Shown here piece after piece: positions 20,012-44,077 of a stretch of 64,000 bases of DNA; positions within the stretch are counted from its first letter, which is position 1; each line of letters opens with the position of its first letter. Source of the stretch: Spizellomyces punctatus DAOM BR117. Taxonomy: Eukaryota. The stretch lies in NCBI GenBank assembly GCA_000182565.2, contig KQ257465.1. One strand, written 5' to 3'. Position numbers and translations under genes: made by a program. Under the pieces are notes generated by a model that saw only the letters and a program-made list of their open reading frames with translations, searched no databases and had not been told where the DNA came from.

Positions 20012-20174
20012 TCCAAGTCCGGGACTATTGATGAAGGGATGATATGCGGTATAGTGCACTTACATGTCAAATTTTACGCATCTAATATTTCACGTGTCCA
20101 AACTCCACCTAATTCAAAGTCAACACTGGTTCTAACTTGACATTCGCTTCTTCTCAAGACTCCATGATATCACT

Positions 20175-20426
20175 TCATCTTGGGACTCCATCTCTCAGCC
20201 TTCGACATCGTAGCTTGTGGACTCGTCTGTGGACTCGTCTCTCCACATATCTCTTCCAACAAGGATAGCATCGAAACTTGTATCCTTTCTGTCCAATTCT
20301 TCGCAATTGAAACCTCCTTCCACAATCCATGCAGATTTGCTCTAGACTTTGGTGTCCATTGTTCCCTGAAAGCAACCATTCCAATATCCATCTCGGCACC
20401 AGCACACAATCATTCACATAGTCCAT
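20175..20426 (-). CDS. TIR-encoded 83-aa basic zinc-ribbon protein (left copy)
   Basis: CMDC..CYPC motif, Arg-rich tail, ACAATGG start context, upstream TATAAAA. Confidence 0.5.
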   Translation of the reverse strand: MDYVNDCVLVPRWILEWLLSGNNGHQSLEQICMDCGRRFQLRRIGQKGYKFRCYPCWKRYVERRVHRRVHKLRCRRLRDGVPR

Positions 20427-21507
20427 TGTTAATTGTTGTATATGGGAATCGTTTTTGAAAAGAAGGCTTCGAGCTGGGGGGACTGGCGGGACCGGCGACC
20501 CTCTTTTATAAACGGATAAGGAACTCTCCCATCTTATCGATAAGATGGTTCACTAGTCCTCTCATCCTATCGATATAACATGTTCGATCTCTCATCGACA
20601 AAGTGTTGATTTTTTTGCCCTTCATGCATAGTAGAGCATTTGTAAGTGTGCATTTAATTATGTAGAGCAGGATGTAGAGCCGTGCACACTTGCACACTTA
20701 CACACTTCCATTTGGGTTGCTTTAGGGAAAAAGTTACTTAATACTAATATTATTATTAGTATGTCCTCAATTTCTCTCTCAAAGAACCTGAAAACTAAGT
20801 GTGCAAGTGTGCAAGTGTGCATGTAGACCATTCTTCATTGATTTCTTTCCGACTTTCACTAGAGAACAATGGAAGACTAGCTAATCATTTCTGATATTAT
20901 CTACAATCACCTAGTCGCACACTTCCTACACATTTCCATTTCTAAATGTGCAAGTGTGCATTTGTCTAATTCACTTTTGACATCCTCACTGCTATCCGCG
21001 TCCCTCCATGCCTGTGGTGTGATAGGTTTGCTATCTGTACCATCCGCCTGATATAGAAATAGCATGAACTCTTTGCTACTGGGTTTGCTTTAAACTCACT
21101 TTTTACTTCTGAGTTGCGTAGTTGCGTTTGATGGAAGATGGTCGTAGAGGCAGCAAGGAAAGGATCAGTGGAGGGATTCCAAGAGGAGAACTAAAGCGAG
21201 TTCGGATACCATCACGTGATCTAAAATTTGAATGCATTGCGCAAAGTGGCACAGTCAACCTAATGCCAAAGTCTATCGGCTGCACACTATATAATCGAGT
21301 GCCACTTATGTAATGGACCCGTGCATCGCTGCACAAAAAGCTGTGTTGGCATCTGTGTTTCAGATGCATGTGGTTTCTTTTTCGTTTCTTTTTGTGGTCA
21401 GTCCAACGAAAGAAGCCATGAAAAGGAAAGGACTGTATGACCCAATGGGGATACAGTTCTCCATCTGCATCCCCATCTTTTATAGAGAAAAAAAAGGGAA
21501 GCCGCGT

Positions 21508-21822
21508 TCACCCAATTTCCATCCGCATTTCTAGAACAAAGAGCCTTTCATTATGATTGTGTCCTAAGAGAACGCAATCCTGCAAGATGGCCAAGTAGCC
21601 GGAATTTCGAAAGCAGATTTCATCCAGTTTCTTCAAGTGGACGATTGACATTATCTCTTTGAAGATGTGTTCGTTCTGGTCTGTTTTCGGAAGAAACAAT
21701 ATGATACGTTTTTTATCTCCTGTCATCATACCTCGACAGTACCTCCAGAATTTATCCATGTCACCCTTCACAGCGTCCTTGATGTTCAATACTGAATGAC
21801 CTTCAATATCCGCGCGTCGCAT
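21508..21822 (-). CDS. Viral hypothetical protein (104 aa)
   Basis: ATG ORF with A-rich leader, co-oriented just downstream of the fibre gene. Confidence 0.45.
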   Translation of the reverse strand: MRRADIEGHSVLNIKDAVKGDMDKFWRYCRGMMTGDKKRIILFLPKTDQNEHIFKEIMSIVHLKKLDEICFRNSGYLAILQDCVLLGHNHNERLFVLEMRMEIG

Positions 21823-21874
21823 TCTTATCTTGCATAGCTTCTTTTTTAAATGATGGCAAATGAAGTTCCTTTCT

Positions 21875-27457: not shown

Positions 27458-27553
27458 GTTATATTGTAGCTAGGAAGTAAAATTTGAGGAGCTTGGCAAA
27501 AGACGAAGCGCTCGACGGTGCCCATCTTATCGATAAGATGGGCGATAAAACCT

Positions 27554-29026
27554 TTACACTATCTTCTGTTTCTTCCTCGGTGGAAGTGTGACATCCTCTG
27601 CACCTTTTCTTCTTCTACTTCGAACTGTAGGTTCCACACGCAGTGTCGATTGTGTTTGTGCAGGAGGGACAACATATTCCGCTTCACGTTGTCCTCTTAG
27701 ACAAGCGAGAGGACGTACTTCGCTTCCCAAGTCTGCGGTTAGCGGTACTAGCGTTGGAGGGTTAAGTGCCGTCGGTGCTAAGACTGGATCAACATTTACC
27801 CTTCTCCTGCGGGAAGCACGTACAGACCTCTCGACTTCTTCAGGATTTTGCAACACTATCTCCTCTAGAGGAGGCTCCTCTACATGATCGGCAATTCTCC
27901 GTCTTTTTACCGTCTGCTTATCATCTGGTTGTTTATACTGTCTTCTTTTTGTACCATGAGGAGCAACCCCAGCAAAAATCACATCCGGAGGATGTGGAGC
28001 AACAGGTGTTGCTGGAGGAGTTACTGGCTCTATCGCATCATGCTCCGCTCCTCCTGTTTTTTGCTTCTTTTTATTCCCTCTAGGAATCGGCGGGGGTGCA
28101 TTTGCTTTCCTTTTAGAACCTGCTAATATGGTTGCTTCCTTACCTTTGAAGTGAAATGGTGTTCTTGCAGGTACCGAGACAAACTGATCATTGATGGAGT
28201 TTCTCTCTAAAACATCCGCTACACCAGATGGATCATGGCGGTCATTCAGAAGTACTGTATCATGTGGAATTGTTGCGCTACGAGGCATTGTTTCCACGGA
28301 GGCATCGATTTGAGGAGATTCCACATGTATCTGTTGAGTCGACCCAGGAAATCCTCCTGGAATAGGTGGAATGTAACTATCAGCCATTAGATGCGCTGGC
28401 AGTGAAACTGCAATGCCAGTCGCATGATTGACACGGTCATTTCCAACTGCATCTCTTCGTATCTCTGTTTCTCGAGTCAGGATGACTGGCTCTACAGGAA
28501 CACTGTTTACATTGCGTGGTTGCGCCGGTATCTCATTTCCATTCGGTGGTGCCTGAAACATTAAGCCTGTTTGGGAAGTCACTGATGCTGGATAGGAATA
28601 CACATGCCCTGATTCATCAGGAATCGGTAATCCTGAAAGGGAATTTTGCGTTCCAATGGTCAATGCACTCCCTTGTCGACTTGGAGTAATCGAATCAAGA
28701 TACTTCTGTTTCTTACGATAATCTTCTTCTGCTTTCACATACTCAAGACCATCCTTATAAGCCTTTGTTGTTTGTTGGGCAGCCGATAATTTCAGAACAT
28801 CAGAAGACGAGAGCCTCGGTTCATATTTAGGTTCAACGTAATTGGTCTTTGTCGCTAAGTCTTTTTGATGGATCAACCTGTTCCACGAATACACTACTTG
28901 TGGTCGCCCGAGGTCATCGACCTTTGAATAGTCTAGAGCGACCCCAACTTGTCTCTTTTGCAAATTAGGAATCGGTGGCGAAACAGCATATGTATCACTC
29001 AAGTAATTGGCTCGGTAATATGCCAT
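27554..29026 (-). CDS. Viral Pro-rich protein with basic NLS-like clusters (possible core protein)
   Basis: 490-aa ORF with KRK/RRRR clusters and C-terminal PPRKKQK; lies in the structural module. Confidence 0.6.
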   Translation of the reverse strand: MAYYRANYLSDTYAVSPPIPNLQKRQVGVALDYSKVDDLGRPQVVYSWNRLIHQKDLATKTNYVEPKYEPRLSSSDVLKLSAAQQTTKAYKDGLEYVKAEEDYRKKQKYLDSITPSRQGSALTIGTQNSLSGLPIPDESGHVYSYPASVTSQTGLMFQAPPNGNEIPAQPRNVNSVPVEPVILTRETEIRRDAVGNDRVNHATGIAVSLPAHLMADSYIPPIPGGFPGSTQQIHVESPQIDASVETMPRSATIPHDTVLLNDRHDPSGVADVLERNSINDQFVSVPARTPFHFKGKEATILAGSKRKANAPPPIPRGNKKKQKTGGAEHDAIEPVTPPATPVAPHPPDVIFAGVAPHGTKRRQYKQPDDKQTVKRRRIADHVEEPPLEEIVLQNPEEVERSVRASRRRRVNVDPVLAPTALNPPTLVPLTADLGSEVRPLACLRGQREAEYVVPPAQTQSTLRVEPTVRSRRRKGAEDVTLPPRKKQKIV

Positions 29027-29091
29027 ACTAGGTTTTTTCCTTTGCTATGTAGAGCTGAAAAAATAATATCTCTTCTGTTCTATAAATCAAG

Positions 29092-29391
29092 ATGCCTAAT
29101 TGGTTTTCTAAAGCGAAAGCAAAGGCAAATGTTCTGTGGAATAACGCGCCGAGTTTTCTTACAAAGGCCCGCAACTTTGCTAACAATGCTGTGAAGCATG
29201 CTGTTACAGTAAATAAACATGTCCAACATGTGAATAAACAAGTACAAGAATCTCCTTTATTTTCACAGGGTATTCGGGAAAAGTCACACAAGATTTCCAG
29301 TCATGGTGAGACTGGGGTGAGGAAACTACAAGAACTCCACAAGAACGCTGACGACTTTGTGGAACGGGTAAGGGGAGGTCCTATCGAGTAA
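29092..29391 (+). CDS. Small basic amphipathic viral protein (99 aa)
   Basis: N-terminus WFSKAKAKANVLWNNAPSFLTKARNF; TATAAA just upstream; adjacent to the capsid gene. Confidence 0.55.
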   Translation: MPNWFSKAKAKANVLWNNAPSFLTKARNFANNAVKHAVTVNKHVQHVNKQVQESPLFSQGIREKSHKISSHGETGVRKLQELHKNADDFVERVRGGPIE

Positions 29392-29490
29392 ACCTATTTT
29401 GTTCACTTCACAGCGCTCCTTCGAGTTTGAAAAGCAAGAGCTTCCTTTTTTACAGAAAATGTTTATGCATCGAATAATTCAAAAATTACA

Positions 29491-30744
29491 TCACACCACA
29501 GTTACTACTGCTCCAATAGAAAGTGTAACATTCTCGTGGTATGACGTTACCAGCCTAACCTTTTGGGTCGGTGCGACTGCGTGTTGGGTGTGTATGCGCA
29601 TAATTCCGTCACTGCCAGTAAATGAGAGTGCCGCATTACTGCCTTCATCCTTTGATGCAAATGACCAGCCAAATGAGAATGCCTTGGAATCATAGTCGGC
29701 GTATGACGTATCCATCTCCCCGAGTTGGTCAAAGTTGTTATTTGACAACTGGGTGACAAGCAGTGTTTGATTATCACTTGGTGAATGCGTAAAACCCTGG
29801 TTTCCAGCAGGAATGGTAAGATTAGGGCCTAGTGAAATTCTCCACTCGCGTAGTCCCTGTGAAGAATACATTAACGCTTTATCTTTTGTCTGGTCATTGA
29901 GAACGTCGTCGTCCACAAAGGCTGATTCGAACCCAACCAGTGAGCGAACACCGCTCATGTGGAGAAGGAATGTATTTCTGTTACCACCGGAGCAAGCATT
30001 CTCGGTCTGTGTTGATCTAACATAGTCATAGAATATTGACTTACCATCTGATATAGCACGAGTCGCGTTAACCACAGTAGTAGGCGGTGGTGTAATGTAT
30101 GGAACTAAACAGCGGATATTGGAAACCCAAATCTCACCTACACCAGCACTTGTAAAAACTGTGTTCGGGTCTGCGAGGGTGATGATAATTTCCAATGCCT
30201 GATTACTCAGACTCCAAACTGGGAAGTACTGGTCATTCGATGGATGGCAGAAACCGACTAAGGGGTGGTGATTAATGGAAATGGTACTTGATGTTGCAAA
30301 GATATTGGTGTTTCCATATCCGGAAAGTTGGCTCAACAATTTCTTACTACCGGCGGATAGATTGCGGTATGTTTGTACTAGATAAAGAGGATAGTTTGGA
30401 ATGTTAACAACAGTTTCTCCCCCTGCTTTGATGGTTAATGATTGAATAATGGATTCTAAGCCAAGATACATGTTTTTAACACCTGTACCAGGAGTTATCA
30501 AGTTTCCTGCATTATCGTATGCAGAAACATCCATGGAGAGAATGAGTTTTTGCAGAATGAAACTCACCGAATTAGAGTCACAAGTTATCTTGATTGGGGT
30601 CAGGTTACGACTTTTTGTCATATATGTGCTTTGACCAATCGGACTATAGATTGACACGCCTTCCCCACGGGGGTCTGAGTACCCCCTCGCGAACGTATTC
30701 GTCGAGAACAGCCAATTACATGGTACTGCAACTTCTTCTGACAT
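29491..30744 (-). CDS. Major capsid protein (predicted double jelly-roll)
   Basis: 417 aa, beta-strand-like pattern throughout, ends Y..VTLSIGAVVTVV; clustered with penton-like and packaging ATPase genes. Confidence 0.72.
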   Translation of the reverse strand: MSEEVAVPCNWLFSTNTFARGYSDPRGEGVSIYSPIGQSTYMTKSRNLTPIKITCDSNSVSFILQKLILSMDVSAYDNAGNLITPGTGVKNMYLGLESIIQSLTIKAGGETVVNIPNYPLYLVQTYRNLSAGSKKLLSQLSGYGNTNIFATSSTISINHHPLVGFCHPSNDQYFPVWSLSNQALEIIITLADPNTVFTSAGVGEIWVSNIRCLVPYITPPPTTVVNATRAISDGKSIFYDYVRSTQTENACSGGNRNTFLLHMSGVRSLVGFESAFVDDDVLNDQTKDKALMYSSQGLREWRISLGPNLTIPAGNQGFTHSPSDNQTLLVTQLSNNNFDQLGEMDTSYADYDSKAFSFGWSFASKDEGSNAALSFTGSDGIMRIHTQHAVAPTQKVRLVTSYHENVTLSIGAVVTVV

Positions 30745-30787
30745 GTTTGTTTACTGAATTGCAAAGGAAAAAAAAATGGAAGATTTT

Positions 30788-31336
30788 TCAGCCAAAAATG
30801 CCACCATAGTTGTCCTCCTCAACATTGTCCTCCTCAAAGAACGGTGATCTAGAGTCAAAGAATGGTTCATCATCACCGAATTTCAAAATTACGCTCTTTT
30901 TTTTAGATGGACGTATTGCTGCTGGCTGCGCCTTTGCTGCTAGTTTGGTTCTCTTGCTCCTAGTTGTTGTTGGTGTTGGTGTTGGTGTTGCCTTCATTCC
31001 TCGCTTCGTGTTTCGTCGTTCTTCCCTTGCTAATCGCTTCTGTTCCTTCTCCTCTTCAAGGATGCGTTTGGCCTCATCGATTTTACGCTTCTTCTCTTCC
31101 TCTTTCCTTTGCTCTTCACATTTCGCCTGCATCTCACGTAACTGTGCGGCTCGGGCCTTTTGGGCCTTCTCCAATGCTGCCCTTTGCTTATCCGTCATTG
31201 GACGTTTTACTTTCTGCGTAGGAGTTTGTTCTGGTTTCTTTTCTGCTTTTTGAACAGGTGCTTGTTCAGCGGGTGATTCTACATTCTCTTGTGGAATGGT
31301 ACTCGATTCTTGATGATCTTGAGTTTGCTCTTCCAT
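30788..31336 (-). CDS. Charged coiled-coil viral protein (182 aa)
   Basis: KRPMTDKQRAALEKAQKAR followed by an E/K/R-rich helix; A-rich leader. Confidence 0.6.
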   Translation of the reverse strand: MEEQTQDHQESSTIPQENVESPAEQAPVQKAEKKPEQTPTQKVKRPMTDKQRAALEKAQKARAAQLREMQAKCEEQRKEEEKKRKIDEAKRILEEEKEQKRLAREERRNTKRGMKATPTPTPTTTRSKRTKLAAKAQPAAIRPSKKKSVILKFGDDEPFFDSRSPFFEEDNVEEDNYGGIFG

Positions 31337-31382
31337 TGTTTTTTCTTACTTAGCTTCTGAGAAAAAAAAAATTAGACATCAA

Positions 31383-32102
31383 TTAGACATCCGCAACATC
31401 GTCTGAAAATGCAAACCGAACGGTTAACGGGCTGTTGAGTGCAACTTCCAAACCGGTCATCAAGTCAATAAGATAGAATTCGATTTTGGAGATAGTGTCA
31501 TCAACAGGGAGCCATTCTCCCGCATCATTTGTCCAGGTGATTACATCTCCAAAACTATCTGGGACAACAGTGGCTACTACTGATTGCACGGAATCATCGA
31601 AGTCACTGAGGTAGCGGCTTCCCTTGACTTGAATGTTGCTGGTTAAAAGCACCAGGTAACTTCCCGAGAGGTTAACTGGATTCTTCAATGTTACCGTTTG
31701 GTAATACCCAGTCTCGGTCCATCTTGACATTCCTGTAAGTATGTACGCCGTTGTTCCTCTCGACGCTGGCAAAATTTTGAATTTCTTAGGCCCTGTCGCA
31801 GTTATGGAAATCTTCCTGCTCACACCATCATAAGTAACAGTATAGCCCTGTGTTCCGGCCGTGCTCATAGCGTCAGCCACTGCGTTTGGAAAATTGGCGA
31901 TACTATAGTTCCCAGGAGCAATGGTTCCACTATAAATCGTGCTATCTCCTTCCTCTGCAAAGGCTATAGTATTGTTTGCAGAGGAAACAAGGTCCCAATC
32001 TTGGAGAAAGGAAACCGAGAGAACCTTCATCATTTCCATTCTCCGGGGGGGAATACTGAATGATCGAGATTTTAAGGAACAATATGTGACTTCGTTAATC
32101 AT
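31383..32102 (-). CDS. Minor capsid (penton-like) protein
   Basis: 239 aa; NNTIAF..TIAPGNYS..; C-terminal ISKIEFYLID..LTVRF pattern typical of PLV/virophage pentons; neighbours the ATPase. Confidence 0.68.
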   Translation of the reverse strand: MINEVTYCSLKSRSFSIPPRRMEMMKVLSVSFLQDWDLVSSANNTIAFAEEGDSTIYSGTIAPGNYSIANFPNAVADAMSTAGTQGYTVTYDGVSRKISITATGPKKFKILPASRGTTAYILTGMSRWTETGYYQTVTLKNPVNLSGSYLVLLTSNIQVKGSRYLSDFDDSVQSVVATVVPDSFGDVITWTNDAGEWLPVDDTISKIEFYLIDLMTGLEVALNSPLTVRFAFSDDVADV

Positions 32103-32143
32103 TTCCTTTCCTTCCTTTATGTAAAGAACAAGGAAATTTTAAA

Positions 32144-32857
32144 ATGGGATATAAGCCACGTGCAATTTTTCCTGTGCATAAAAAGAAAAGAGATCCAAGA
32201 GTTCCAGAAGACATTGCTAGCCTCCCTATATGCACGACTTTGATCGCACCTCGAAAAAGTGGGAAGAGCGCTCTTGTTTGTGGTCTGATAAATGATGTAT
32301 ATGCCAAGTTAGTCGATCGAGTGATAATAATGTCAGATACGGTTGCATACGACGCATCTGTGAAGGTATTGGCTGAAACCACAAAGCATAAAAACATCTA
32401 CTATACTGATGATGTGTCTAATGCATCCATAGCAAAGATTGTTGATGAACAAAAAGCGGCACCTGACAAGTCACTTCTATTGTTCATCGATGATTCTGGA
32501 GATAGTGCCCAGTCAAAGGAATTAAACAAGGAATTGTCCAAACTCTATACGAAAGGGAGACATTTCAATATTTCTACAATCGTAGCCATTCAGAGTGTGA
32601 CTGGGCAGTTGAGTAATAAAATGAAGGGATGTTCGACTGAATTTATTATTTTTCGTAACAATGCGGAGGATCTGAAACTCCTTGCTAAGATGCTCACTTC
32701 TGCTTACAAGACATATGAAGAGGTTCTTGCCTATCTTACTGAATCTACAAAGGAACCCTATGCTTTCTGTTACATGAATTTAGCAGCAAACAACGCCAGA
32801 GAAATGTATCGATACTGTGACTCTATTGGGTTTCACGATTACTTTCTAAACAGTTGA
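32144..32857 (+). CDS. A32-like (FtsK-HerA) genome packaging ATPase
   Basis: Walker A APRKSGKS, Walker B LLFIDD, KGRHFNIS and IVAIQ motifs. Confidence 0.92.
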   Translation: MGYKPRAIFPVHKKKRDPRVPEDIASLPICTTLIAPRKSGKSALVCGLINDVYAKLVDRVIIMSDTVAYDASVKVLAETTKHKNIYYTDDVSNASIAKIVDEQKAAPDKSLLLFIDDSGDSAQSKELNKELSKLYTKGRHFNISTIVAIQSVTGQLSNKMKGCSTEFIIFRNNAEDLKLLAKMLTSAYKTYEEVLAYLTESTKEPYAFCYMNLAANNAREMYRYCDSIGFHDYFLNS

Positions 32858-33208
32858 GCGCATGTCCCTTTGACCACCTAGTTCCTGAAGCGCAGCCAGT
32901 TTCTGAAGTTCAGCTTCTTTCATCTTGTCGAAGAGGTATTCATATTCATCGGCATAGCCATTGAGGAAGGAACGAAGATCATCTGGACAGTCGTCGTAGT
33001 CAGTAAATCCCTCGATGTTGTTGATAAAATAGCCCTGGCATGTCGCTTCTGCATTATAATAAATTTGACAGAGTTCCAGGTAGCAGTCCAAGTCGGGCCC
33101 ACTTAGGTTTGCAATATTCTTGGCTTCCCGCCTAATCCATTCTTCCTTCGGAACCTCAACGAAATCAATGTGTTCGAGATCTTCTTCAGTGAAGTTGAAT
33201 TTCGACAT
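32846..33208 (-). CDS. Acidic viral hypothetical protein (120 aa)
   Basis: ATG ORF converging on the ATPase stop. Confidence 0.5.
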   Translation of the reverse strand: MSKFNFTEEDLEHIDFVEVPKEEWIRREAKNIANLSGPDLDCYLELCQIYYNAEATCQGYFINNIEGFTDYDDCPDDLRSFLNGYADEYEYLFDKMKEAELQKLAALQELGGQRDMRSTV

Positions 33209-33427
33209 CGTTGCTCAGATGGTAAGACTCTTGCAATTGGGAAAAGTCATTGGAGGGAATCGAGCATGGCCTTTTAAGCAAAACAGAGGAAATCATCGAT
33301 CGATTGAAATGATGTAACTGCACATCAATAATCACACATCTGTCGTATTTCCATCGAAAGACTCGAAGATGTGACTCTATTGGGTTCAAGGATTATTTCT
33401 GAGCGGAAATGTAAACAGAATAAGAAG

Positions 33428-34708
33428 ATGTCTTGGAGAGTATTGACTCCAGATGAGAGGGAGAAAGTAGAGAATGTTTATAAAACATTCAAAACAGGGC
33501 GGGATAACCTCTGGAGAAAAACACGTGAAGTATACCCGGACTTCAAAGGAAGCCAACGCAGCGTATTGAATGATTTTCTAAAGTACCAGCCCGAATGGCA
33601 AACTCATGTGAAGCCACCGAAACAATCATCTATTGCGCCACTACAATTCACCAAGGCAGGTTACCTCCAGGCAGATCTGGTTTCCATGCGTAGTTATCCA
33701 GATGCCGGATATACTGCGTTTTTTCATATGATTGACGGGTTTACAAAGAAATCTTGGGGCAAACCACTTCGAGGTGAGTCGGAACAAGAGGTTAGTAATG
33801 CAGCAGAAGAATGCATACAACAATCTGGAAAGCGCATCTCGACAATGCAAACAGACAATGGACCACATTTTCAGAGAATCTTTACTAGAATGTTGGAGAG
33901 ACATAATATCAAACACTTTTATTCCCAAGCGGCAAGACCACAATCTAATGCCTTCATTGAACGGAGAGGTGGAGATATAAAACGACAACTCTTCGCTCTC
34001 ATGGAGTCCGCAGGCGATAAGAAATGGGTGCAGAACTTTCAGATGGTTCTGGACAATATCAACGGCAGTGTGTCCAGGGCAACGGGACAATCTCCTAATG
34101 AAATGGAAAATGGGGATGCAGAAGTCCAACAAGAAGCCGTCGCTCGAATCCAGAAAAACATTGCATCAAGGTATCGCACCAGGCAAATTGGGACACCATT
34201 GTTTGTAGGTCAAAAGGTACGAAAGAAACGAGTATTACAAGGCAGCGTTAGGAAACCAGGATTGCTGGGCTTCTGGGACAAGGACGTCTACGAGATTGTT
34301 CAATGCATTGATTCTCAGCATCCAAGTTTCATTCCGTCGTATCGCATAGCCACAGCCACAGGTCATATTCTATATGGCCGCTTCCCTAGAACAAGTTTGC
34401 TACCCATTCCGCCCATATTATCTCATGATTTAGTAGATCTTGACAATGAAGAACAACGCGCTGAGTCGCTGCAAGTTCCAAACGAGTTAGTACCAGCACC
34501 AGAGCCACGTCGATCATTACGATTGGATCAAGAACGTGAAGATGAATACGAAGTAGACCATATTGTTGGGAAGCGGAGATATCGCGGGAGAACCCAGTAT
34601 AAAATCAGATGGCTAGGTTATGGCCAAGAGGATGATAGTTGGCAAGATGTAGAGGATCTCGCCAACGCACCCGAAAAGGTTGCAGAGTACGAGCGCATTC
34701 ATAGTTAA
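33428..34708 (+). CDS. Retroviral-type (rve) DDE integrase with C-terminal chromodomain
   Basis: QADL, IDGFTK, QTDNG, NAFIER; chromodomain EYEVDHIVGKR..YKIRWLGYG..DSW. Confidence 0.93.
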   Translation: MSWRVLTPDEREKVENVYKTFKTGRDNLWRKTREVYPDFKGSQRSVLNDFLKYQPEWQTHVKPPKQSSIAPLQFTKAGYLQADLVSMRSYPDAGYTAFFHMIDGFTKKSWGKPLRGESEQEVSNAAEECIQQSGKRISTMQTDNGPHFQRIFTRMLERHNIKHFYSQAARPQSNAFIERRGGDIKRQLFALMESAGDKKWVQNFQMVLDNINGSVSRATGQSPNEMENGDAEVQQEAVARIQKNIASRYRTRQIGTPLFVGQKVRKKRVLQGSVRKPGLLGFWDKDVYEIVQCIDSQHPSFIPSYRIATATGHILYGRFPRTSLLPIPPILSHDLVDLDNEEQRAESLQVPNELVPAPEPRRSLRLDQEREDEYEVDHIVGKRRYRGRTQYKIRWLGYGQEDDSWQDVEDLANAPEKVAEYERIHS

Positions 34709-34768
34709 AAATTATTATCTGCTGCACAAATGGACTAGAGCTAAACTTAAAACCACAAAGCAACAACC

Positions 34769-35866
34769 CTATGTGGCAGCATCTTTGCAATAGGCGAGAT
34801 TCTCTGCTTCGTTGTGGTGATGTTGTTTTGACATAAAGGTAGATGCCGCACGCTTCAAATGCCGCTTTCTAATATGCGTAATTTGCACACTACGGAGCAA
34901 ACGGACACCATAGTTCTTGTCTTTGTTGTTCGTTGCTTTGCTCCAGGCATTTTGAATGCAATTGCGAAATGTGTCAATTACAAAAGGTTCCTCCTTGCTG
35001 TTTAAAAAGATGTACTCAGACTCCATACGAAACCTGGTAACAAAGCGAACGAGTTCCTTAGCAACATAGGATGGGTCCACTGACTCCGCAATTTCTGGAA
35101 AATGAGGTGTAGTCATTGATTGCAAAAAAGGTTCATTCAGGTAGCGGTCATTATCTTCTGTATCATTTAGTTTCTTAGCAGATGTTTTTGCAGCGGAGAT
35201 ACGATCTTGCTTTCTGTCATTCCAAAGGATACAAGCATTTCCAGCATTGTCATATACGAAAATATTGTCCTTCTTCCAATTGACACCAGGGTGCTTGAAA
35301 TTTTTCAACGTTCCATAGTTTGCATGGACGTTGTAAAAGTGGGATGTGAAAAGTCCAATTTTTGCATCCTGGAGCGCATAGATCTCATACTTGTTTGGAT
35401 ACGGCTTATCATAGATTTTATTCTGCTCTTCGTTATAGGCTCTCATCATAGCACATTCTGCATCCCAGTCTTCAATGGTACCATCCATTGGGCGTTCTCC
35501 TGTGTCTCCAAGATCTTTGTAAGCCTTCTTCGCATCACGAGCAGCGTTGTAAAGTGGTTTCGTAAGTTCATCATGTTTGCTCTTCTCTAATCCACAGAAA
35601 TCGTGACCTGCATTTCTAATAATGCAGGCTATTAACCCGAGATCTGTAGAGTACGTGTTATGGGTGGGTTCACCATTTTTTGTCTTTGTTGCTGTACGGT
35701 CTTTCACGAGTGACTTCTGAAATGAGATGTCCTGGATTTTCCCTAGGGACGAAAAAGCACCTCTACGCTGATAATCTTGTGCTTTAGCCAAGTCTGTCGC
35801 ATATGATCTTGAGTTCTCATTGAGGAATCCAGCAAGATTGGCGGTATGTAACGGAAAAGTAGCCAT
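34769..35866 (-). CDS. Divergent tyrosine-recombinase-superfamily-like protein (365 aa)
   Basis: EYIFLNSKEEPF, then LLRSVQIT..MSKQHHH..LAYCK resembles the C-terminal R..H..Y box; the first catalytic Arg is not obvious. Confidence 0.5.
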   Translation of the reverse strand: MATFPLHTANLAGFLNENSRSYATDLAKAQDYQRRGAFSSLGKIQDISFQKSLVKDRTATKTKNGEPTHNTYSTDLGLIACIIRNAGHDFCGLEKSKHDELTKPLYNAARDAKKAYKDLGDTGERPMDGTIEDWDAECAMMRAYNEEQNKIYDKPYPNKYEIYALQDAKIGLFTSHFYNVHANYGTLKNFKHPGVNWKKDNIFVYDNAGNACILWNDRKQDRISAAKTSAKKLNDTEDNDRYLNEPFLQSMTTPHFPEIAESVDPSYVAKELVRFVTRFRMESEYIFLNSKEEPFVIDTFRNCIQNAWSKATNNKDKNYGVRLLRSVQITHIRKRHLKRAASTFMSKQHHHNEAENLAYCKDAAT

Positions 35867-35987
35867 GTGGTCTTTGACAGAAGGTGAATAAATTTTTTAC
35901 ACTACAGATAAACCCATATCCTTAGCTCGCTCCTCTTATATAGACATTTTATTTCATGTTTTATCGATAGATTTTCTCCATCAACCT

Positions 35988-36509
35988 ATGCCAGAACATG
36001 TTGTCTTTGATGCCAAATCATCTATTGTAGATAAGATTTTTCCTCTAGTCGAACAACTGTACCGGATTCTTGCCAATGCTTCTGGGAAATCACCCACACC
36101 ACCACCTGATGGTAAGACGATCAATATAATGTTAGCGGAAGACGAACCCGTTTTAAGATCAATGTTTATGAGGTTCTGGAAGAGAGAATCTAATGTTACA
36201 GTATTCACAGCGTCTGATGGTATTGAGGCCGTTGAACTCTTTAAAAAGCAACGATTGAATATCATTTTTGTTGATATCGACATGCCTTACAAAAATGGAG
36301 TGGAAGTAACACGTGAAATAAGACAGTATGAGAGGGACCACAATCTAGATCAAACGCCTATAATAGGAGTGTCTGGATTCACGGAGCGTCAGTACGAGGA
36401 ACAGGCCTTTGCTGCCGGTATGAACAAATTTGTATCAAAAGGAACAGGGTATCAATTGAAAGATATTTACAGAATCGTTGTAGAATACTGTGGAGATCCA
36501 AAGACCTAA
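35988..36509 (+). CDS. Stand-alone response-regulator receiver (REC) domain protein
   Basis: IMLAEDE, FVDIDMP..NG, PIIGVS, AGMNKFVSK; intronless, inside the virus. Confidence 0.92.
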   Translation: MPEHVVFDAKSSIVDKIFPLVEQLYRILANASGKSPTPPPDGKTINIMLAEDEPVLRSMFMRFWKRESNVTVFTASDGIEAVELFKKQRLNIIFVDIDMPYKNGVEVTREIRQYERDHNLDQTPIIGVSGFTERQYEEQAFAAGMNKFVSKGTGYQLKDIYRIVVEYCGDPKT

Positions 36510-36611
36510 CAAAACGGTGGTCACACCTGTTTGTGTATTTTTCGCTGATACAAAAAGACAAAGCAGACTAAAAACTACAATATCGTACATCCGTCCCATG
36601 CTATTCCTTCT

Positions 36612-38636
36612 TTATAGCTTCTTCCCATCCTCCGTCAAAGTAAGCCCCTCCCATAGCGTAGTCGGATTGTCTGTCGTCTTTCCATCGAGGCTATCTACTT
36701 GCTTCAGACGCTGTTTCACAACTTGAAATGAATCCTTGTGATGCTTAAGAAGATAGTCACCTATGTCCTCCTTCCGAGGGTAAGGATTTTCTCCGTATTT
36801 TTTCTCTTGCTTCACCCACGCTTCGTATGCTCTGCGAAAACTATCGGGGTACATCCGCCTTCCCGTCTCCCACTTTACGTACTTTGCCACAAAGCGTCCC
36901 AGAGGATCGAGCTGAGAAGTAAACTCGTTTGTCTTTTCGCTCACTTCATCAGGAACCGGCTGAAGCGATCGTTCTCCGGTTCGGATTTCGACCAGACGAC
37001 GGATGAGGAAACTCATAAACACATCCTTGTATTCTACTATACGTTTCTCCAGTTCCTGTATCCCGACAAACTTCTTTGCATCTTTGCCACCTTTCTTGTT
37101 AGCTTCCTCCTCTGTTCTGCAAAACTCGGACAACATGGGAAACACTTCGAATCGACGAGTGACACCATGAGCGTGGTCGTAGACAATCGGTAACCAGTTC
37201 ATGGCACCCAGAAGAAGAGCGTTCATTTTGAAGGCACCAGTGGTGGTGTCATTAACTTGTCGGGCATTAACCCAGCCATTGATCAGCTTCTTAAATGTGT
37301 CCCCTCGCCATTGCTCATTCTTATTCACTTCGTCCACGCATACGGTAAACTTCCCATCACATCCCTTCAGCTCGCAGTTAGGCCTCGTACTATCAATGTT
37401 CTTACCGAGTTGGCTACTCTGCATGCTGTGCGCTTTCACACTAAAAGTTGCCATTATCAAGTCGATAATGACCGTTTTCCCATTTGCCCCCTCCCCCAAC
37501 AAAATGACCATTTTCTGTGGTTGATTTGCGTCCAGAGTCATACACAAATGATCAAAGAGGTACTCGCGAACCTTCTCAGAGGTGACCATGGTAGAGAAGC
37601 GAGCCATAAGGTAATCGAACCGTTCTTCATTCAGCTCCGACCACCCCTCCCCTTTCACATACTGCTCATCCAGAGCATAACCGAGGTAATCTCTCGTATC
37701 AACACAGTAGTCCGTTTGCTGCCCTGGACGTAGCTTTAACATTTCAAAATCAAAGACACCATTGTCAAAACACAAAATACGCTTCTTTTCTTTCACATGG
37801 TTCAAAAAATCCTCGATGTGTAACTTCGTCTTCATGCTTTGTACAACATTTCTAGAGCTCTTTTTGACAATCATTGTAAAGGCTTCGTCCTCGTCCTCGT
37901 TGAAATAATGCTCCATTGTCACTTGGAAGAGCTCCTCTGCAATCCGGCTAAATTGTTCATCGGTAATAGTTTGATAGCTGTGTACAGCTTTGTTGAATCG
38001 ATACCATTTTCCATGGGTTTTCGACCCGGCATGCACAAACTCTCCCCACCACTGCCTCTCTGCAAAATCAACGATGCACAATTTGAAATTTTGTTCCCAC
38101 TTCTTGTGCCTGTTATTAAAGATCTCGCGACATTTATTTCCAATCTTTCCGGCAGCTTCCTGTAGAGACTCGGGAGGGGTTGTCCTGGGAACATAGGGGA
38201 TGTTGCCTTTGACCATGTTAGGTGCCTGGTTCTCGGGTGCCTTGAGTGTGCTTTCATTAGCTGCTTTGTTCTCCTCGGGTACCTTGAGTGTGGTATCATT
38301 AGCTGCTTTGTTCTCCTCGGGTGCCTTGAGTGTGCTTTCATTAGCTGCTTCGTTCTCCTCGGGTGCTTTGAGGTTGTCCTGCTTGTCATCGCCGCCGAAC
38401 GTGCTTGAACCATATGTTTCGAGATCGAAATCGAGATTCCCAATATCCTCGAGATTCTCAAAACCTAAAATGGGACTTGCTTTTATTTCTGGCTGTGTCT
38501 CGCGTCTTACATGCTTATCTTGTCGCACCCTCTTAGTTTGACGGGAATCGTCCTCATCAGGATCTCTCCTCCTAGTCGACCCTGAACCACGTGTTTTAGA
38601 TGTGTCTGTACTCATGGCGTTCGTTAGTTGTAGCAT
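36612..38636 (-). CDS. D5-like superfamily 3 helicase (no evident primase domain)
   Basis: ILCFDNGVFDF, Walker A GEGANGKT, Walker B VCVDE, Arg finger TRRF; disordered N-terminus. Confidence 0.9.
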   Translation of the reverse strand: MLQLTNAMSTDTSKTRGSGSTRRRDPDEDDSRQTKRVRQDKHVRRETQPEIKASPILGFENLEDIGNLDFDLETYGSSTFGGDDKQDNLKAPEENEAANESTLKAPEENKAANDTTLKVPEENKAANESTLKAPENQAPNMVKGNIPYVPRTTPPESLQEAAGKIGNKCREIFNNRHKKWEQNFKLCIVDFAERQWWGEFVHAGSKTHGKWYRFNKAVHSYQTITDEQFSRIAEELFQVTMEHYFNEDEDEAFTMIVKKSSRNVVQSMKTKLHIEDFLNHVKEKKRILCFDNGVFDFEMLKLRPGQQTDYCVDTRDYLGYALDEQYVKGEGWSELNEERFDYLMARFSTMVTSEKVREYLFDHLCMTLDANQPQKMVILLGEGANGKTVIIDLIMATFSVKAHSMQSSQLGKNIDSTRPNCELKGCDGKFTVCVDEVNKNEQWRGDTFKKLINGWVNARQVNDTTTGAFKMNALLLGAMNWLPIVYDHAHGVTRRFEVFPMLSEFCRTEEEANKKGGKDAKKFVGIQELEKRIVEYKDVFMSFLIRRLVEIRTGERSLQPVPDEVSEKTNEFTSQLDPLGRFVAKYVKWETGRRMYPDSFRRAYEAWVKQEKKYGENPYPRKEDIGDYLLKHHKDSFQVVKQRLKQVDSLDGKTTDNPTTLWEGLTLTEDGKKL
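38234..38372 (-). repeat. 42-bp coding tandem repeat (~3.3 copies of LKAPEENxAANxxT)
   Basis: Visible in both DNA and translation of the helicase N-terminus. Confidence 0.9.
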
Positions 38637-38701
38637 GAGTGTCAGACAAGGGGGCGGGCTTGGCTATATAGACTTCGAGAAGTTGCTATCAATAGAACTC
38701 T

Positions 38702-38875
38702 CTTTCTTTTTCTTATACCTTTTCTTGGCGTACATCGACAGAAATAGTAACAGCCGCTTTCTCAGTTTGCGCTAAGATGCCACATCATATCATCCTTTCT
38801 TTTTCTTATACCTTTTCTTGGCGTAGATCGACAGAAATAGTAACAGCCGCTTTTCTCAGTTTGCGCTAAGACGCC
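38702..38875 (+). repeat. ~80-bp direct duplication upstream of the D5 helicase
   Basis: 38702-38781 and 38795-38875 are nearly identical. Confidence 0.9.
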
Positions 38876-38888
38876 GTTCACCTCCATT

Positions 38889-39400
38889 GGTTACCATCTA
38901 CATAAACGCTCGCACCTCTGTCGGTTACCATCTACATGAATGCTCGCACCTCTGTCGGTTACCATCTACATGAATGCTCGCACCTCTGTCAGTTACCATC
39001 TACATGAATGCTCGCACCTCTGTCAGTTACCATCTACATGAATGCTTGCACCTCTGTCGGTTACCATCTACATGAATGCTCGCACCTCTGTCGGTTACCA
39101 TCTACATGAATGCTCGCACCTCTGTCAGTTACCATCTACATGCGGTGCTAAGCCTGCATTGTAGATAGCTTTGAGCTGGAGTGCATGCCTTATGTAGATG
39201 TTAACCGATGGAGGTGCAAGCATGCATGTAGATGGGTTTGAGCTGGAGTGCATGCCTTATGTAGATGTTAACGATGGAGGTGCAAGCATGCATGTAGATG
39301 GGTTTGAGCTGGAGTGCATGATCTTATGTAGATGTTAACCGATGGAGGTGCAAGCATGCATGTAGCTGGAGTGCATGCCTTATGTAGGGTTTTGAGCTGG
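38889..39400. repeat. Inverted iteron-like arrays: ~8 x 34 bp facing ~3.5 x 67 bp
   Basis: Unit GGTTACCATCTACATGAATGCTCGCACCTCTGTC (38889-39142). The second array contains ATGTAGATGTTAACCGATGGAGGTGCAAGCATGC, a diverged reverse complement of it. Confidence 0.9.
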
Positions 39401-39541
39401 GGACCCATTAGCCTTTGTGCATCGAAATGCACGGGTTTTTAGGGGGTTGTTTACATAAGCACTTGTTGTTGGTTCTCGGGAAAAGCTGCAAATCTTTGTA
39501 CTTTAAAAAAAGGTTATTAAACTTGAAGAAACCTTGAAAGC

Positions 39542-39712
39542 ATGGATTCAAACTGCCGCCAACATGAATGTCTGGGATGTCGAAAAATTATCCCTTGGCT
39601 CAGGTGCCGTCCGAGATGTACCGATTGTTATTTGAAATGGTTAGAGCAGCGCGCTAACCAACTTCCGAGATTTAATATCCTTGCGCCAGATAGTGAAGAT
39701 GAAAGCACGTGA
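39542..39712 (+). CDS. 56-aa zinc-ribbon protein (below the ORF-track cutoff)
   Basis: MDSNCRQHECLGCRKIIPWLRCRPRCTDCYLKWLE..; CxxC-x12-CxxC. Confidence 0.5.
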   Translation: MDSNCRQHECLGCRKIIPWLRCRPRCTDCYLKWLEQRANQLPRFNILAPDSEDEST

Positions 39713-39714
39713 TG

Positions 39715-40095
39715 TCAACTTTCAGTCTCAACCACCCGACAATTTATCAGTGGATTCACGGCTCCTCTGAAGTTGCACTGGTAACCAAGAAGCAACATCG
39801 CCATGATAAAATCACCATTCATCATATATAGTCCGGTTCTTTCTTCTAAGACATGCTTTAAACCATATGATGTGATCTTTGACATACTTCATTGTACCCG
39901 AAACACCTTTGGAATTAGTTGTATCCCCCTTTCAATGTTGGATAAATTGAACATCTTCACATTATCTTCTAAGGTCGGTCTTTCTTTTGACGGCTTTTTC
40001 AATGATGTCCCAGCAAGTTCATTTCCATATTCAGTTAACAATACATTAGCAGGAAGCCTCGAAAGCACATTCTTGATTTCATCTAAGGTTACCAT
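39715..40095 (-). pseudogene. Viral SYGLKH-motif protein with in-frame TGA at 39889-39891
   Basis: ..FRVQ*SMSKITSYGLKHVLEERTGLYMMNGDFIMAMLLLGY.. continues in frame; the motif recalls a family of uncharacterised dsDNA-virus proteins. Confidence 0.55.
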
Positions 40096-40233
40096 TTCGA
40101 TGTTTCTTGTGTGTTTATATAAGCTCCCAGAAAAATAACATTATGTGCGTTTATTGCGTTTCTCTCAATAACTGCAATTATTGCGTTTAGGAGCAGCGAT
40201 AAAAATCTCGACTGACTATCAACAAACCTCATA

Positions 40234-42708
40234 ATGGAATCTCCGTCTAGAGTCTGCAAAAATTTAAAACGCTCTGCCCCCGTGAAGCATGTGGCGGGTG
40301 CAGAAATGAGGCTTACACCTAAAAAGCAAAAAAAAACGGATAATAAAGCGCGCCCAACTGTGGAAGATAACACCCTCAAGGTTGACCTTGACGCTGAGGA
40401 AGATTTCATCACAAAGACTGAACAGGTACATCTTGGCCATCTCAAAAAGTTAGTCAGAATCCAAAAACTCTTCGTTCCGAGTAGCGTTGAAGACTGCAAA
40501 GACAAGGACTACTCAGTGCTGTTAAAATCATACTACAGTAAGGTAGACAAGAATGGCAACTTGTCCGTGACATACCGATTCAAGAACAATGGTCAGTTTG
40601 GACGGCTGTTTGCTAAAGGGATGGCATCCCCATATTTTCCATCTACTGTAAGGGACTTTTTGTTTCCAGATTACATCAATGTTGACATGAGGGCTGCAGT
40701 CTTCACAATCTACCGTCACTACAGCGAGCGCTACAACATCCCCAGTCCTGAACTCTTGCAGTTATTAGAAAAGAGGGATGAGATCTTGCAGAAGAAACAA
40801 CTCACCAAAAAGAAGTTGAACGCTCTCATGAATACAATGACCCCACCTAAGCGTGATAAGTTCCTCATCAATCTTCACGGTTGGATACACAGCAAGTTGC
40901 TGCCTAAACTCAAGGTAGACCCAGAGTACAAGAACTTGTGGATTGCGATCGACAAATCACCGGACGCTGACCCTGTGACTGGGAAGAAGAAGAACAAGGA
41001 TGTGAGTTTCCTTTGCCTGTGCTATCAGACCATAGAACGGCACATCCTTATACACATGTCAGAGTTTTTTGAGAACCGTGGCTGGACGGTTGGCGCTCTG
41101 ATTTACGATGGACTCCTCGTGCAAAAGGATAAAGACAAGATTCTCAATGATGCATTGCTCCGTGAATGTGAGGAGTCGATTTACAACCGCCTCAAGATAC
41201 GGGTCACACTTGCCGAGAAACCCAGGGATATTGATGAAACCTTTCTCAAGAGAAACCATCTCGACCTTGAGGATGTGGACCCGGATAATGATCTTGACGA
41301 CACTGATCTCGATACTGATCTTGACAACCGTGATGTGGTGGATCTGGTGCCAGATGATGAACCCTTGAGCCTCGCAAAATCTGCTAAAATTTTTGGCAAA
41401 GGTACCAATCTGAAAGGTCTGATTCGTTATCTAAACAACTTCTTCACTAAAATAACAGAAGAAGATACTGCATTATACTGCTATCGAGAGAAGCGCAGTG
41501 ATCCTTGGATCTGTCGAACATATAAAAACACCTCGAGCGCTTTATCCCATCTGTTTTTACACTCCATTGATAAAAACGGCAAAGGAGTGATAATTTCCCT
41601 CTTCGACCAGTGGGCAGGCAGCCAAAGAATTATCACATACAAAAAAGTGGTATTCGATCCATCCTACATCGGTGACATACCATTCAAAGAAATCAACCTC
41701 TTCAAGGGCTTCCAGGCAACACTCTTAGATCAGTATGACGAAAAGATAATCGAACCAGTACTTTCCCACATTCGCCAAGTTCTTAACGGCAGTGTTGAGG
41801 AATGTTGGCAATACACAGAAAAGTGGATGGCATCAATTGTGCAGCATCCTCAGATCAAAACCGAAGTGGCCCTTGTCTTCCACGGCTCTCAGGGAACAGG
41901 GAAGAACTTGTTGATGGACAATTTTTTCGGTAGGCTTGTGATCGGTATGAAGCACTTTCTGAACACGAACAATCTCGATGATCTTACCGGTCAATTCACT
42001 GGCCATCTCTCCGCAAAGATTTTCACGATTGGAGATGAAGTTCTGTTTGCCGGTGGTCACAAAACTAACAACATATTGAAATCACGCATCACGCAGAATG
42101 TGCAAAAGATGGAAAAGAAGGGAGTTGATGCAATTACCATTGGCGACTTTAACAACTACAGTTTTCTGTCTAATCACGATGATGCTGTGAAGATCGAAAA
42201 CACCGACCGTAGGTATTTTGTGAAACGTGCTTCAGACATTCATAAAGGAGACACAGAATACTTTGCAACATTTGCGGAAAAGTGTCTGAATCAAGAGACA
42301 GCGGATCACTTTTACACCTATCTGATGCAGATGGATCTCACTGGTTTCAACCTTTGTAAAATACCTGTTACTGAGGAGAAAGCAGAGATGGCCATCTACT
42401 CGATGGACCCACTAGAACTCTTTGTGGATGATCTACTCAACGGCAACATCAGCAAAGGTTTCACGTATGTAGATGGTGAAAGAACACAGGAATGGATGTT
42501 GCCAGGTGAAACATACGAGATGACCATGGATGAGTTGTTTTCACTGTACCAAACATTTCTACAATCTGGCGCAGCCGGTAGGAGATTAGTAGATATGTCT
42601 AAAATGGGATTTAGCAAGAAGATCAGGCGGATGGTACAGATAGCAAACCTATCACACCACAGGCATGGAGGGACGCGGATAGCAGTGAGGATGTCAAAAG
42701 TGAATTAG
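40234..42708 (+). CDS. PolA-derived primase-polymerase (TVpol-like) fused to an SF3/D5-like helicase
   Basis: FGRLF..VRDFL..INVDMRAA (motif A), YQTIER, LIYDGLLV (motif C); C-terminal GSQGTGKN, IGDE, DRRY. Confidence 0.8.
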   Translation: MESPSRVCKNLKRSAPVKHVAGAEMRLTPKKQKKTDNKARPTVEDNTLKVDLDAEEDFITKTEQVHLGHLKKLVRIQKLFVPSSVEDCKDKDYSVLLKSYYSKVDKNGNLSVTYRFKNNGQFGRLFAKGMASPYFPSTVRDFLFPDYINVDMRAAVFTIYRHYSERYNIPSPELLQLLEKRDEILQKKQLTKKKLNALMNTMTPPKRDKFLINLHGWIHSKLLPKLKVDPEYKNLWIAIDKSPDADPVTGKKKNKDVSFLCLCYQTIERHILIHMSEFFENRGWTVGALIYDGLLVQKDKDKILNDALLRECEESIYNRLKIRVTLAEKPRDIDETFLKRNHLDLEDVDPDNDLDDTDLDTDLDNRDVVDLVPDDEPLSLAKSAKIFGKGTNLKGLIRYLNNFFTKITEEDTALYCYREKRSDPWICRTYKNTSSALSHLFLHSIDKNGKGVIISLFDQWAGSQRIITYKKVVFDPSYIGDIPFKEINLFKGFQATLLDQYDEKIIEPVLSHIRQVLNGSVEECWQYTEKWMASIVQHPQIKTEVALVFHGSQGTGKNLLMDNFFGRLVIGMKHFLNTNNLDDLTGQFTGHLSAKIFTIGDEVLFAGGHKTNNILKSRITQNVQKMEKKGVDAITIGDFNNYSFLSNHDDAVKIENTDRRYFVKRASDIHKGDTEYFATFAEKCLNQETADHFYTYLMQMDLTGFNLCKIPVTEEKAEMAIYSMDPLELFVDDLLNGNISKGFTYVDGERTQEWMLPGETYEMTMDELFSLYQTFLQSGAAGRRLVDMSKMGFSKKIRRMVQIANLSHHRHGGTRIAVRMSKVN

Positions 42709-44072
42709 ACAAATGCACACTTGCACATTTAGAAATGGAAATGTGTAGGAAGTGTGCGACTAGGTGATTGTAGATAATATCAGAAATGATTAGCTAGTCT
42801 TCCATTGTTCTCTAGTGAAAGTCGGAAAGAAATCAATGAAGAATGGTCTACATGCACACTTGCACACTTGCACACTTAGTTTTCAGGTTCTTTGAGAGAG
42901 AAATTGAGGACATACTAATAATAATATTAGTATTAAGTAACTTTTTCCCTAAAGCAACCCAAATGGAAGTGTGTAAGTGTGCAAGTGTGCACGGCTCTAC
43001 ATCCTGCTCTACATAATTAAATGCACACTTACAAATGCTCTACTATGCATGAAGGGCAAAAAAATCAACACTTTGTCGATGAGAGATCGAACATGTTATA
43101 TCGATAGGATGAGAGGACTAGTGAACCATCTTATCGATAAGATGGGAGAGTTCCTTATCCGTTTATAAAAGAGGGTCGCCGGTCCCGCCAGTCCCCCCAG
43201 CTCGAAGCCTTCTTTTCAAAAACGATTCCATATACAACAATTAACAATGGACTATGCGAATGATTGTGTGCTGGTGCCGAGATGGATATTGGAACGGTTG
43301 CTTTCAGGGAACAATGGACACCAAAGTCTAGAGCAAATCTGCATGGATTGTGGAAGGAGGTTTCAATTGCGAAGAATTGGACAGAAAGGATACAAGTTTC
43401 GATGCTATCCTTGTTGGAAGAGATATGTGGAGAGACGAGTCCACAGACGAGTCCACAAGCTACGATGTCGAAGGCTGAGAGATGGAGTCCCAAGATGAAG
43501 TGATATCATGGAGTCTTGAGAAGAAGCGAATGTCAAGTTAGAACCAGTGTTGACTTTGAATTAGGTGGAGTTTGGACACGTGAAATATTAGATGCGTAAA
43601 ATTTGACGTGTAAGTGCACTATACCGCATATCATCCCTTCATCAATAGTCCCGGACTTGGACAAACACCTTGGACGACTCGAAACACTTTGAAACACTCC
43701 AATGCATTGGGCAAACACCTTGGAAGACTCGAAACACTTTGAAACACTCCAATGCATTGGGCAAACACCTTGGAAGACTCGAAACACTTTGAAACACTCC
43801 AATGCATTGGGCAAACACTTCCGTACTATGGGTTTTGGTACATTCTTCCGTACTATGGGTTTTGGTACATTCTTCCGTACTATGGGTTTTGGTACATTCT
43901 TCCGTACTATGGGTTTTGGTACATTCTTCCGTACTATGGGTTTTGGTACATTCTTCCGTACTATGGGTTTTGGTACATTCTTCCGTACTATGGGTTTTGG
44001 TACAGTGAAGCTGACTATGGGCACTGTGGTAGTGCATGCCTGTGGTATATACCACAGGCATGCACTACCACA
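42622..44072 (-). repeat. Right viral TIR (1451 bp), ending in the 48-bp palindrome 44025-44072
   Basis: Mirror of 19628-21052; includes the last ~29 codons of the TVpol-helicase ORF. Confidence 0.95.
43247..43498 (+). CDS. TIR-encoded 83-aa zinc-ribbon protein (right copy)
   Basis: Same as the left copy except Ala/Val4 and Arg/Trp17. Confidence 0.5.
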   Translation: MDYANDCVLVPRWILERLLSGNNGHQSLEQICMDCGRRFQLRRIGQKGYKFRCYPCWKRYVERRVHRRVHKLRCRRLRDGVPR

Positions 44073-44077
44073 CCGCC

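Follow-up and report, generated by a model that had tools for sequence, protein, structure and literature searches.

The integrated Polinton-like virus in the window (i.e. the whole 64,000-nt stretch of Spizellomyces punctatus DNA analyzed here) carries an open gene for a stand-alone two-component receiver in which the catalytic residues are all retained. By sequence, the receiver belongs with a family of kinase-dead hybrid histidine kinases, and its gene moved recently, within a short cassette, between virus lineages sharing this host. We tentatively read the protein as a decoy or phosphate sink acting on the host phosphorelay. The features on which this account is based are listed in Table 1.

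Table 1. Features discussed in the text, with positions counted from the first nucleotide of the window
Feature	Position	Strand	Basis
Integrated Polinton-like virus, about 24.4 kb, palindromic tips, 5-7-bp target duplication	19627..44072	.	inverted repeats, tips, duplication
Left terminal inverted repeat	19628..21052	+	
Right terminal inverted repeat	42622..44072	-	
Probable double-jelly-roll major capsid protein, 417 aa	29491..30744	-	language-model features; 7 genome loci
A32-type packaging ATPase	32144..32857	+	E 6.5e-7
rve integrase with chromodomain	33428..34708	+	family match
365-aa ORF, head-to-head with receiver, no family match, single copy	34769..35866	-	
Cassette common to C22 and C15 virus copies, 94-95% nucleotide identity, flanks not homologous	35932..36500	+	
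51-nt non-coding block upstream of receiver ORF	35932..35982	.	4 virus copies
Stand-alone receiver ORF, 173 aa, uninterrupted	35988..36509	+	ORF and Pfam match
Predicted N-terminal helix, residues 9-31, pLDDT about 58, then Pro-rich linker	36012..36080	+	predicted structure
99-nt GT..AG stretch, intron in public gene model; encodes beta1-alpha1-beta2 and acidic pocket, probably coding	36112..36210	+	sequence, family alignment
Receiver domain, residues 45-168	36120..36491	+	Pfam and predicted structure
E51-D52; D96; S129; K151-G152	36138-36143; 36273-36275; 36372-36374; 36438-36443	+	sequence
D5-type primase-helicase-like gene, tail-to-tail with receiver	36612..38636	-	family match
Second primase-helicase-like gene	40234..42708	+	family match

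The receiver and the virus that carries it

The product of the receiver ORF matched Pfam Response_reg (PF00072) over residues 47-152 with an E value of 8.1e-21 and a score of 74.7 bits (cut-off 30.2). The acidic pocket (E51-D52), the acceptor D96, S129, and K151 are all present, S129 and F148, which act as switch residues, are retained, and the protein has neither a kinase nor an output domain. The Pro that commonly, but not universally, follows the receiver Lys is absent, and K151 is followed by G152. The predicted structure is a confident (beta/alpha)5 receiver fold with five strands and five helices, which superimposed on the fungal hybrid-kinase receiver 8phn with a Z score of 20.4 and an rmsd of 1.6 A over 123 residues; the top rows of the structure search were tied at Z 20-21 and included yeast Ssk1, a hybrid-kinase receiver from Chaetomium, and the bacterial GacS D1. 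The first-pass annotation of this DNA had described a stand-alone, virus-borne REC protein of the hybrid-kinase type with its acidic pocket, phospho-acceptor Asp, and Lys retained. The ORF, the Pfam match, the fold, and the viral context all agree with that description, and the residues in question can be read directly from the sequence.

The element around the receiver is a Polinton-like virus, as had also been proposed: it combines a capsid-like protein (recognized by language-model features), an A32-type ATPase, an rve integrase, and D5-type helicases with terminal inverted repeats (TIRs) of about 1.4 kb each, a target duplication, and a size within the 15-40-kb range. The capsid-like protein gave a feature score of 0.98 to viral clusters, some of which carry Capsid_N or DJR families in 10-18% of their members, and a minor capsid (penton) candidate at 31383-32102 had no family match. 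The C terminus of the 365-aa ORF that faces the receiver may resemble tyrosine recombinases, although family and similarity comparisons did not confirm this.

Further features of the element and its surroundings were noted. Both tips of the virus (19627-19676 and 44020-44077) form nearly perfect palindromes of about 46-50 nt, next to which lie tandem repeats of 27 nt and 50 nt. The two different primase-helicase-like genes diverge around arrays of 34-nt and about 67-nt repeats (38700-39390), which are a possible origin region. The small acidic ORF that separates the ATPase from the integrase is flanked by a 36-nt direct repeat (81% alike; 32809-32844 and 33363-33398). The virus is itself nested in an element spanning 13723-44869, which has 33-nt inverted ends, a relic of a Ty3-type retroelement (15304-19176, RVT_1), and a split ORF (13887-14585, 19325-19626, and about 44073-44776) that had no family match and that we take to resemble Fanzor by motif. 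About 7 kb to the left of the virus lies a host hybrid histidine kinase gene (10454-12284; HisKA, HATPase, and receiver). Because its receiver is only 25% identical to the viral one, the proximity looks coincidental, and this neighboring kinase (10454-13450) was ruled out as the receiver donor.

Relatives of the viral receiver

Among the best 150 of 162,969 matches obtained from 1.84 billion representative sequences, we found 14 proteins of 404-467 aa with C-terminal receivers 41-74% identical to the viral one, and a profile search added four further long members to give 18. These proteins derive from ENA, JGI, Logan, SRC, and NCBI records, are encoded as uninterrupted ORFs, and in some cases (among them P0005, P0006, P0013, and P0162) lie on contigs of 128-372 kb. 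The closest relative among the listed matches was the receiver of P0005 (74% identity, i.e. 26% different), with host receivers at 38% or less. The N-terminal part of the long proteins comprises a long helix pair and a kinase-type ATP-binding fold: hhalign aligned the family with the canonical hybrid kinase P0225 with a probability of 99.3 over 294 columns (a DHp/CA-type architecture), and Foldseek returned full-length ShkA as the best match and also matched the cores of DivL and RetS. In the long-family consensus, the part preceding the receiver is devoid of a conserved His, and the ATP-binding boxes N, G1, and G2 are replaced (at the N, DTGIG, and GTGLG positions). In the receiver, D96 and K151 occur in all 22 rows of the family alignment, and E51-D52 and S129 occur in at least 90%. 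Judged from these alignments, the long proteins are kinase-dead hybrid histidine kinases with live receivers, and the loss of the kinase boxes and the His with retention of the receiver appears to give them the anatomy of an acceptor. The first-pass annotation was correct in noting KG instead of KP in the viral protein, but this is not a change private to this copy: KG occurs in 16 of 22 aligned family rows and KP in two, and on this alignment KG is a signature of the kinase-dead family. We found no name for this family.

All named members of the family are chytrid gene models (possibly incomplete ones), and all are short, namely those from Blyttiomyces helicus (119 aa), Gaertneriomyces sp. 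JEL0708 (200 aa), and Gaertneriomyces semiglobifer (two of 256 aa and two partial). The Gaertneriomyces and Blyttiomyces loci include KAI8999146.1, KAI8999643.1, KAJ3175989.1, and RKO94431.1. P0022, P0280, P0282, P0087, and P0140 are short helix-plus-receiver forms, and two more proteins of this type (152 and 156 aa) lie near the family. P0002 was considered as a second stand-alone receiver and rejected, as it represents the C-terminal end of P0161, a protein of 454 aa. The N-terminal helix of the viral protein gave a weak profile match to the second helix of the long family (6 of 500 shuffles were equally good) and is possibly a remnant of it.

No member of the long family was found in the S. 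punctatus genome, and none was confirmed when viral_contigs was searched with receiver or family queries; a capsid query against viral_contigs gave no match. The GTDB scan returned no close member, with 20 of 20 confirmed matches covering the receiver and linker only (best E 8e-17), and the 80 metagenome loci listed, out of 168 confirmed, were all generic receivers with identities of 41% or less. By pairwise identity and profile scores, the closest relatives of the viral receiver thus appear to be neither host nor bacterial receivers. The family receiver profile matched a host hybrid kinase with an E value of 9.5e-30 in a single comparison, and the data are compatible with a deep fungal-type origin of the family receiver. 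We note that, among host proteins, the family profile is matched best by the receiver of a hybrid kinase (L005:1477-3255, G000:C19) whose ATP-binding domain seemingly does not have the usual glycine motifs G1 and G2. We conclude that, as far as sequence relationship tells, the viral receiver gene is derived from this kinase-dead family of about 450 aa, whose dead kinase body would have been lost on the way.

Copies of the cassette and their history

Seven loci in the genome matched the capsid gene, and three of the seven carry the receiver cassette. The receiver had 12 matches, of which three are viral copies (91-100% identity) and nine are host receivers (27-38%), and the survey of related elements suggested in the first-pass annotation thereby extended the receiver beyond a single copy to three places in the genome. 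The copies on C22 and C15 have one stop each. Because these two stops are private and lie at different codons, we conclude that the circulating form of the gene was open. The structural-gene stretches that the focal virus shares with the C22 and C15 elements are 65-83% identical, compared with 94-95% for the cassette, and the receiver dS of 0.077-0.079 contrasts with capsid dS values of 1.13, 1.08, and 0.34 for the same element pairs (in C15, where the receiver is separated from the capsid gene by a gap in the assembly, both were assumed to belong to one element). Because receiver dS is so far below the capsid dS of the same elements, we conclude that the cassette moved recently between virus lineages sharing a host, long after these lineages had split.

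The slot occupied by the receiver has other contents elsewhere. The C3 element is 96-99% identical to C22 until 5 nt before the receiver start codon, where a C5 DNA methylase gene follows, and the C8 element has a RING protein in the receiver slot; a gap or a retrotransposon obscures the slot in the remaining two of the seven capsid loci. We conclude that the receiver sits in an exchangeable accessory slot and, since the sister element so similar to C22 does not have the gene, that it is dispensable. The 51-nt block upstream of the ORF is identical in the focal element, C22, and C3 and 98% identical in C15, and the flanking genes differ between copies; the block could be a crossover point or, possibly, a promoter. 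In all three receiver copies, the gene lies head-to-head with a recombinase-like gene, and these neighboring ORFs (365 aa versus 333 aa) have no similarity to each other. As a separate observation, the accessory genes of the sister viruses include the C5 cytosine methylase (L030:3067-5193, G000:C3) and, in C8, the RING-finger protein and a Dam-like methylase (L042:2018-2473, L043:7129-7857, G000:C8). A second, distantly related virus-like element adjoins the C8 copy (G000:C8, about 634000-645000; L044-L045), and its ATPase and integrase are 26% and 21% identical, respectively, to those of the focal virus.

Among the three receiver copies, dN/dS was 0.43-0.53. Purifying selection was undetectable among them (12 of 35 changes were synonymous, against a neutral mean of 10.2 under the observed mutation spectrum; P=0.30) in a test that, with 35 changes, has low power and mixes post-insertion decay with viral history. 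On the branch leading to the focal copy, 4 of 9 changes were synonymous (P=0.26 versus neutral simulation), and none of the five amino-acid changes is at a catalytic position. The first-pass annotation had held that a single copy showing neither purifying selection nor expression would argue against its view of the gene; three copies remove the first part of that case, whereas the selection result stands as given and two of the three copies contain stops. In one RNA run with the same species label, 30 of the 26.4 million records read (about 6% of the run) matched an 8.8-kb stretch that contains no host control gene, so that they speak neither for nor against expression. These records averaged about 18 letters, 14 of the 30 were only 90-95% alike, and none had junctions; six end at 36523, 14 nt past the receiver stop.

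It is possible, if somewhat doubtful, that the receiver is transient cargo, i.e. a fragment recently captured into a recombination-prone slot that hitch-hikes via the 51-nt block, has no useful role, and is intact in the focal copy only by virtue of its youth. The selection result, the two broken copies, the sister element without the gene, the turnover of the slot, and the shared block upstream of it, at which crossovers could occur, are all in keeping with such a history. However, the gene has kept its own start and all catalytic residues despite differing by 26% from its nearest long relative, the amino-acid changes on the focal branch spare the catalytic positions, short forms recur in other chytrids, and a selection test of so little power weighs lightly on the other side.

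Proposed action and comparison with known systems

Because its acceptor site is complete and it has neither a kinase nor an output domain, the receiver can only take phosphate from another protein. The host genome contains a single HPt match (L151; G000:C6:1251583-1251771) and 45 exon-level receiver matches, of which three are the viral copies, and phytohormone-receptor-type kinases of this host are described in the accessible part of PMC5285503. Our tentative reading is that the receiver serves as a decoy or phosphate sink on this one detected HPt and would shift phosphorelay output while the virus is active. The likely phosphate donor would be the HPt, as the funnel for many host hybrid kinases, and phosphate accepted by the viral receiver would leave the true response regulators of the host less phosphorylated. 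In yeast, draining the HPt of the Sln1-Ypd1-Ssk1 relay turns on HOG-type signaling, and, by analogy, HOG-type stress signaling would be switched on here. The gene itself would have begun as a long-family member that lost its dead kinase body and then spread among co-resident viruses. In favor of this reading are the complete receiver site and its conservation in the family, the match of the fold to fungal hybrid-kinase and Ssk1 receivers, the acceptor anatomy of the long proteins, the host HPt and receivers, the presence of the cassette in three lineages with an open circulating form, the accessory genes of other kinds in the slot, and the recurrence of short forms in other chytrids. Binding to the HPt is not assured, since the KP loop of receivers lies on the HPt-binding face in solved complexes and a KGxGY loop replaces it here; the selection result, the stops in two copies, the sister element without the gene, a public gene model that splices out the acidic pocket, and the failure of the viral_contigs scans to yield a related virus contig with this gene also speak against a sink.

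The partner of the receiver could alternatively be viral. If larger chytrid viruses encode the long family, the short form might be a decoy against, or be borrowed from, a co-infecting helper virus and compete for the phosphodonor or partner of the full-length protein. Uninterrupted ORFs of 404-467 aa on contigs of up to 372 kb would suit such a source, there is no close member in the GTDB scan or in this host, and giant viruses of zoosporic fungi exist (PMC13533422, in its available part). We nevertheless consider this unlikely, as viral_contigs yielded no long-family member and the long proteins could be eukaryotic genes or come from other small viruses. Less likely still is that the receiver reads phosphorylated host HPt and regulates a viral partner (the adjacent putative recombinase, the integrase, or a helicase), thereby tying excision or replication to host signaling. 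The head-to-head arrangement with a recombinase-like gene in every copy and the retained switch residues S129 and F148 would fit a sensor of this kind, but the neighboring genes are dissimilar, near-identical elements have the same 333-aa gene and no receiver, and an output domain is absent. The first-pass annotation had raised such a coupling of reactivation to host signaling; we saw no feature of the element that would connect the receiver with reactivation.

The gene had also been called intronless. The ORF is indeed open throughout, but the public gene model P0001 (SPPG_07595), which is possibly a mere prediction, has 33 residues fewer, corresponding to 36112-36210, where all three copies have GT, a branch-like site (CTAAT), and AG. 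Because this stretch would encode beta1-alpha1-beta2 and the acidic pocket and is collinear, gap-free, with the family alignment, its splice-like signals appear to be fixed by coding, and the intron call is probably an annotation artifact. That transcripts of the integrated copy are spliced there into a 140-aa inactive receiver without the acidic pocket, as the model and the splice-like signals would have it, is thus highly improbable.

Returning to the sink reading, a viral antagonist of a fungal His-Asp phosphorelay would, if the reading is true, be testable in a culturable host. Being a single soluble protein of 173 aa whose virus resides in a cultured fungus, and with one HPt detected in that host, the receiver would offer a simple system in which to ask whether viruses tamper with eukaryotic phosphorelays. 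More broadly, and as a doubtful extrapolation, chytrid viruses may share a kinase-dead hybrid-kinase family whose live receivers tap the single HPt of the host, and small Polinton-like viruses may repeatedly have trimmed it to a helix-plus-receiver decoy that is traded as an effector cassette. The locus points in any case to a conserved pseudo-kinase-receiver family that has no name and adds an intact receiver copy and a dated exchange; even as neutral cargo, the gene would cleanly illustrate how deeply diverged Polinton-like viruses that share a host have recently exchanged a cassette.

Compared with the receivers of fungal hybrid kinases and Ssk1 (8phn, 8pdc, 8phx, and 5kbx), the viral protein has the same fold (Z 20.4 and 20.2, rmsd 1.6-1.9 A) and the same catalytic residues, with sequence E values of 1e-12 to 9e-9, but is only 23-28% identical, free-standing, and virus-borne and has the KGxGY loop rather than KP. 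Single-domain response regulators that act as phosphate sinks, such as CheY1 of Sinorhizobium, are chromosomal bacterial proteins with known partners; like them, the viral receiver has an intact acceptor and no output domain, and here the sink role is putative. In the viral structure library, we found many kinase and small receiver folds.

We found no report of a receiver in a Polinton-like virus in the literature searched, which covered a minority of the subscription papers. The terms “receiver” and “response regulator” are absent from the available text and table of PMC7805220, and receiver terms are absent from the available text of bioRxiv 2026.06.19.733378 and from the text and part of the supplements of PMC13533422. 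According to the accessible portion of PMC7805220 (Bellas and Sommaruga 2021), a “S. punctatus group” Polinton-like virus (entry NW_015971538) has pPolB and 154-bp TIRs. It is likewise integrated, bounded by TIRs, and from the same host species; the focal virus, however, has TIRs of about 1.4 kb, two primase-helicase-like genes, and no pPolB match, and we rejected its identity with the published virus as both pPolB and the 154-bp TIR are absent.

A virus-borne receiver is not new in kind, as two-component genes are known in giant viruses. Histidine kinases occur in the phaeoviruses EsV-1, FsV-158, and FirrV-1 and as endogenous copies in brown algae (PMC11890097 and PMC6324907, accessible parts), and their function is stated to be unknown in the available text of PMC11890097. 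Judged from these sources, the phaeovirus genes, like the present one, are two-component parts in integrating eukaryotic DNA viruses, but they are multi-domain kinases of giant viruses, whereas here a lone receiver from a kinase-dead family resides in a 24-kb fungal Polinton-like virus. Giant-virus channelrhodopsins carry response-regulator-like domains (bioRxiv 10.1101/2020.04.15.042127, available part) and thus also place a receiver fold in a eukaryotic virus. In the same source, these domains are fused to rhodopsin and nearly all are without the Asp, Ser/Thr, and Lys, whereas in the free-standing receiver described here, all of these residues are kept.
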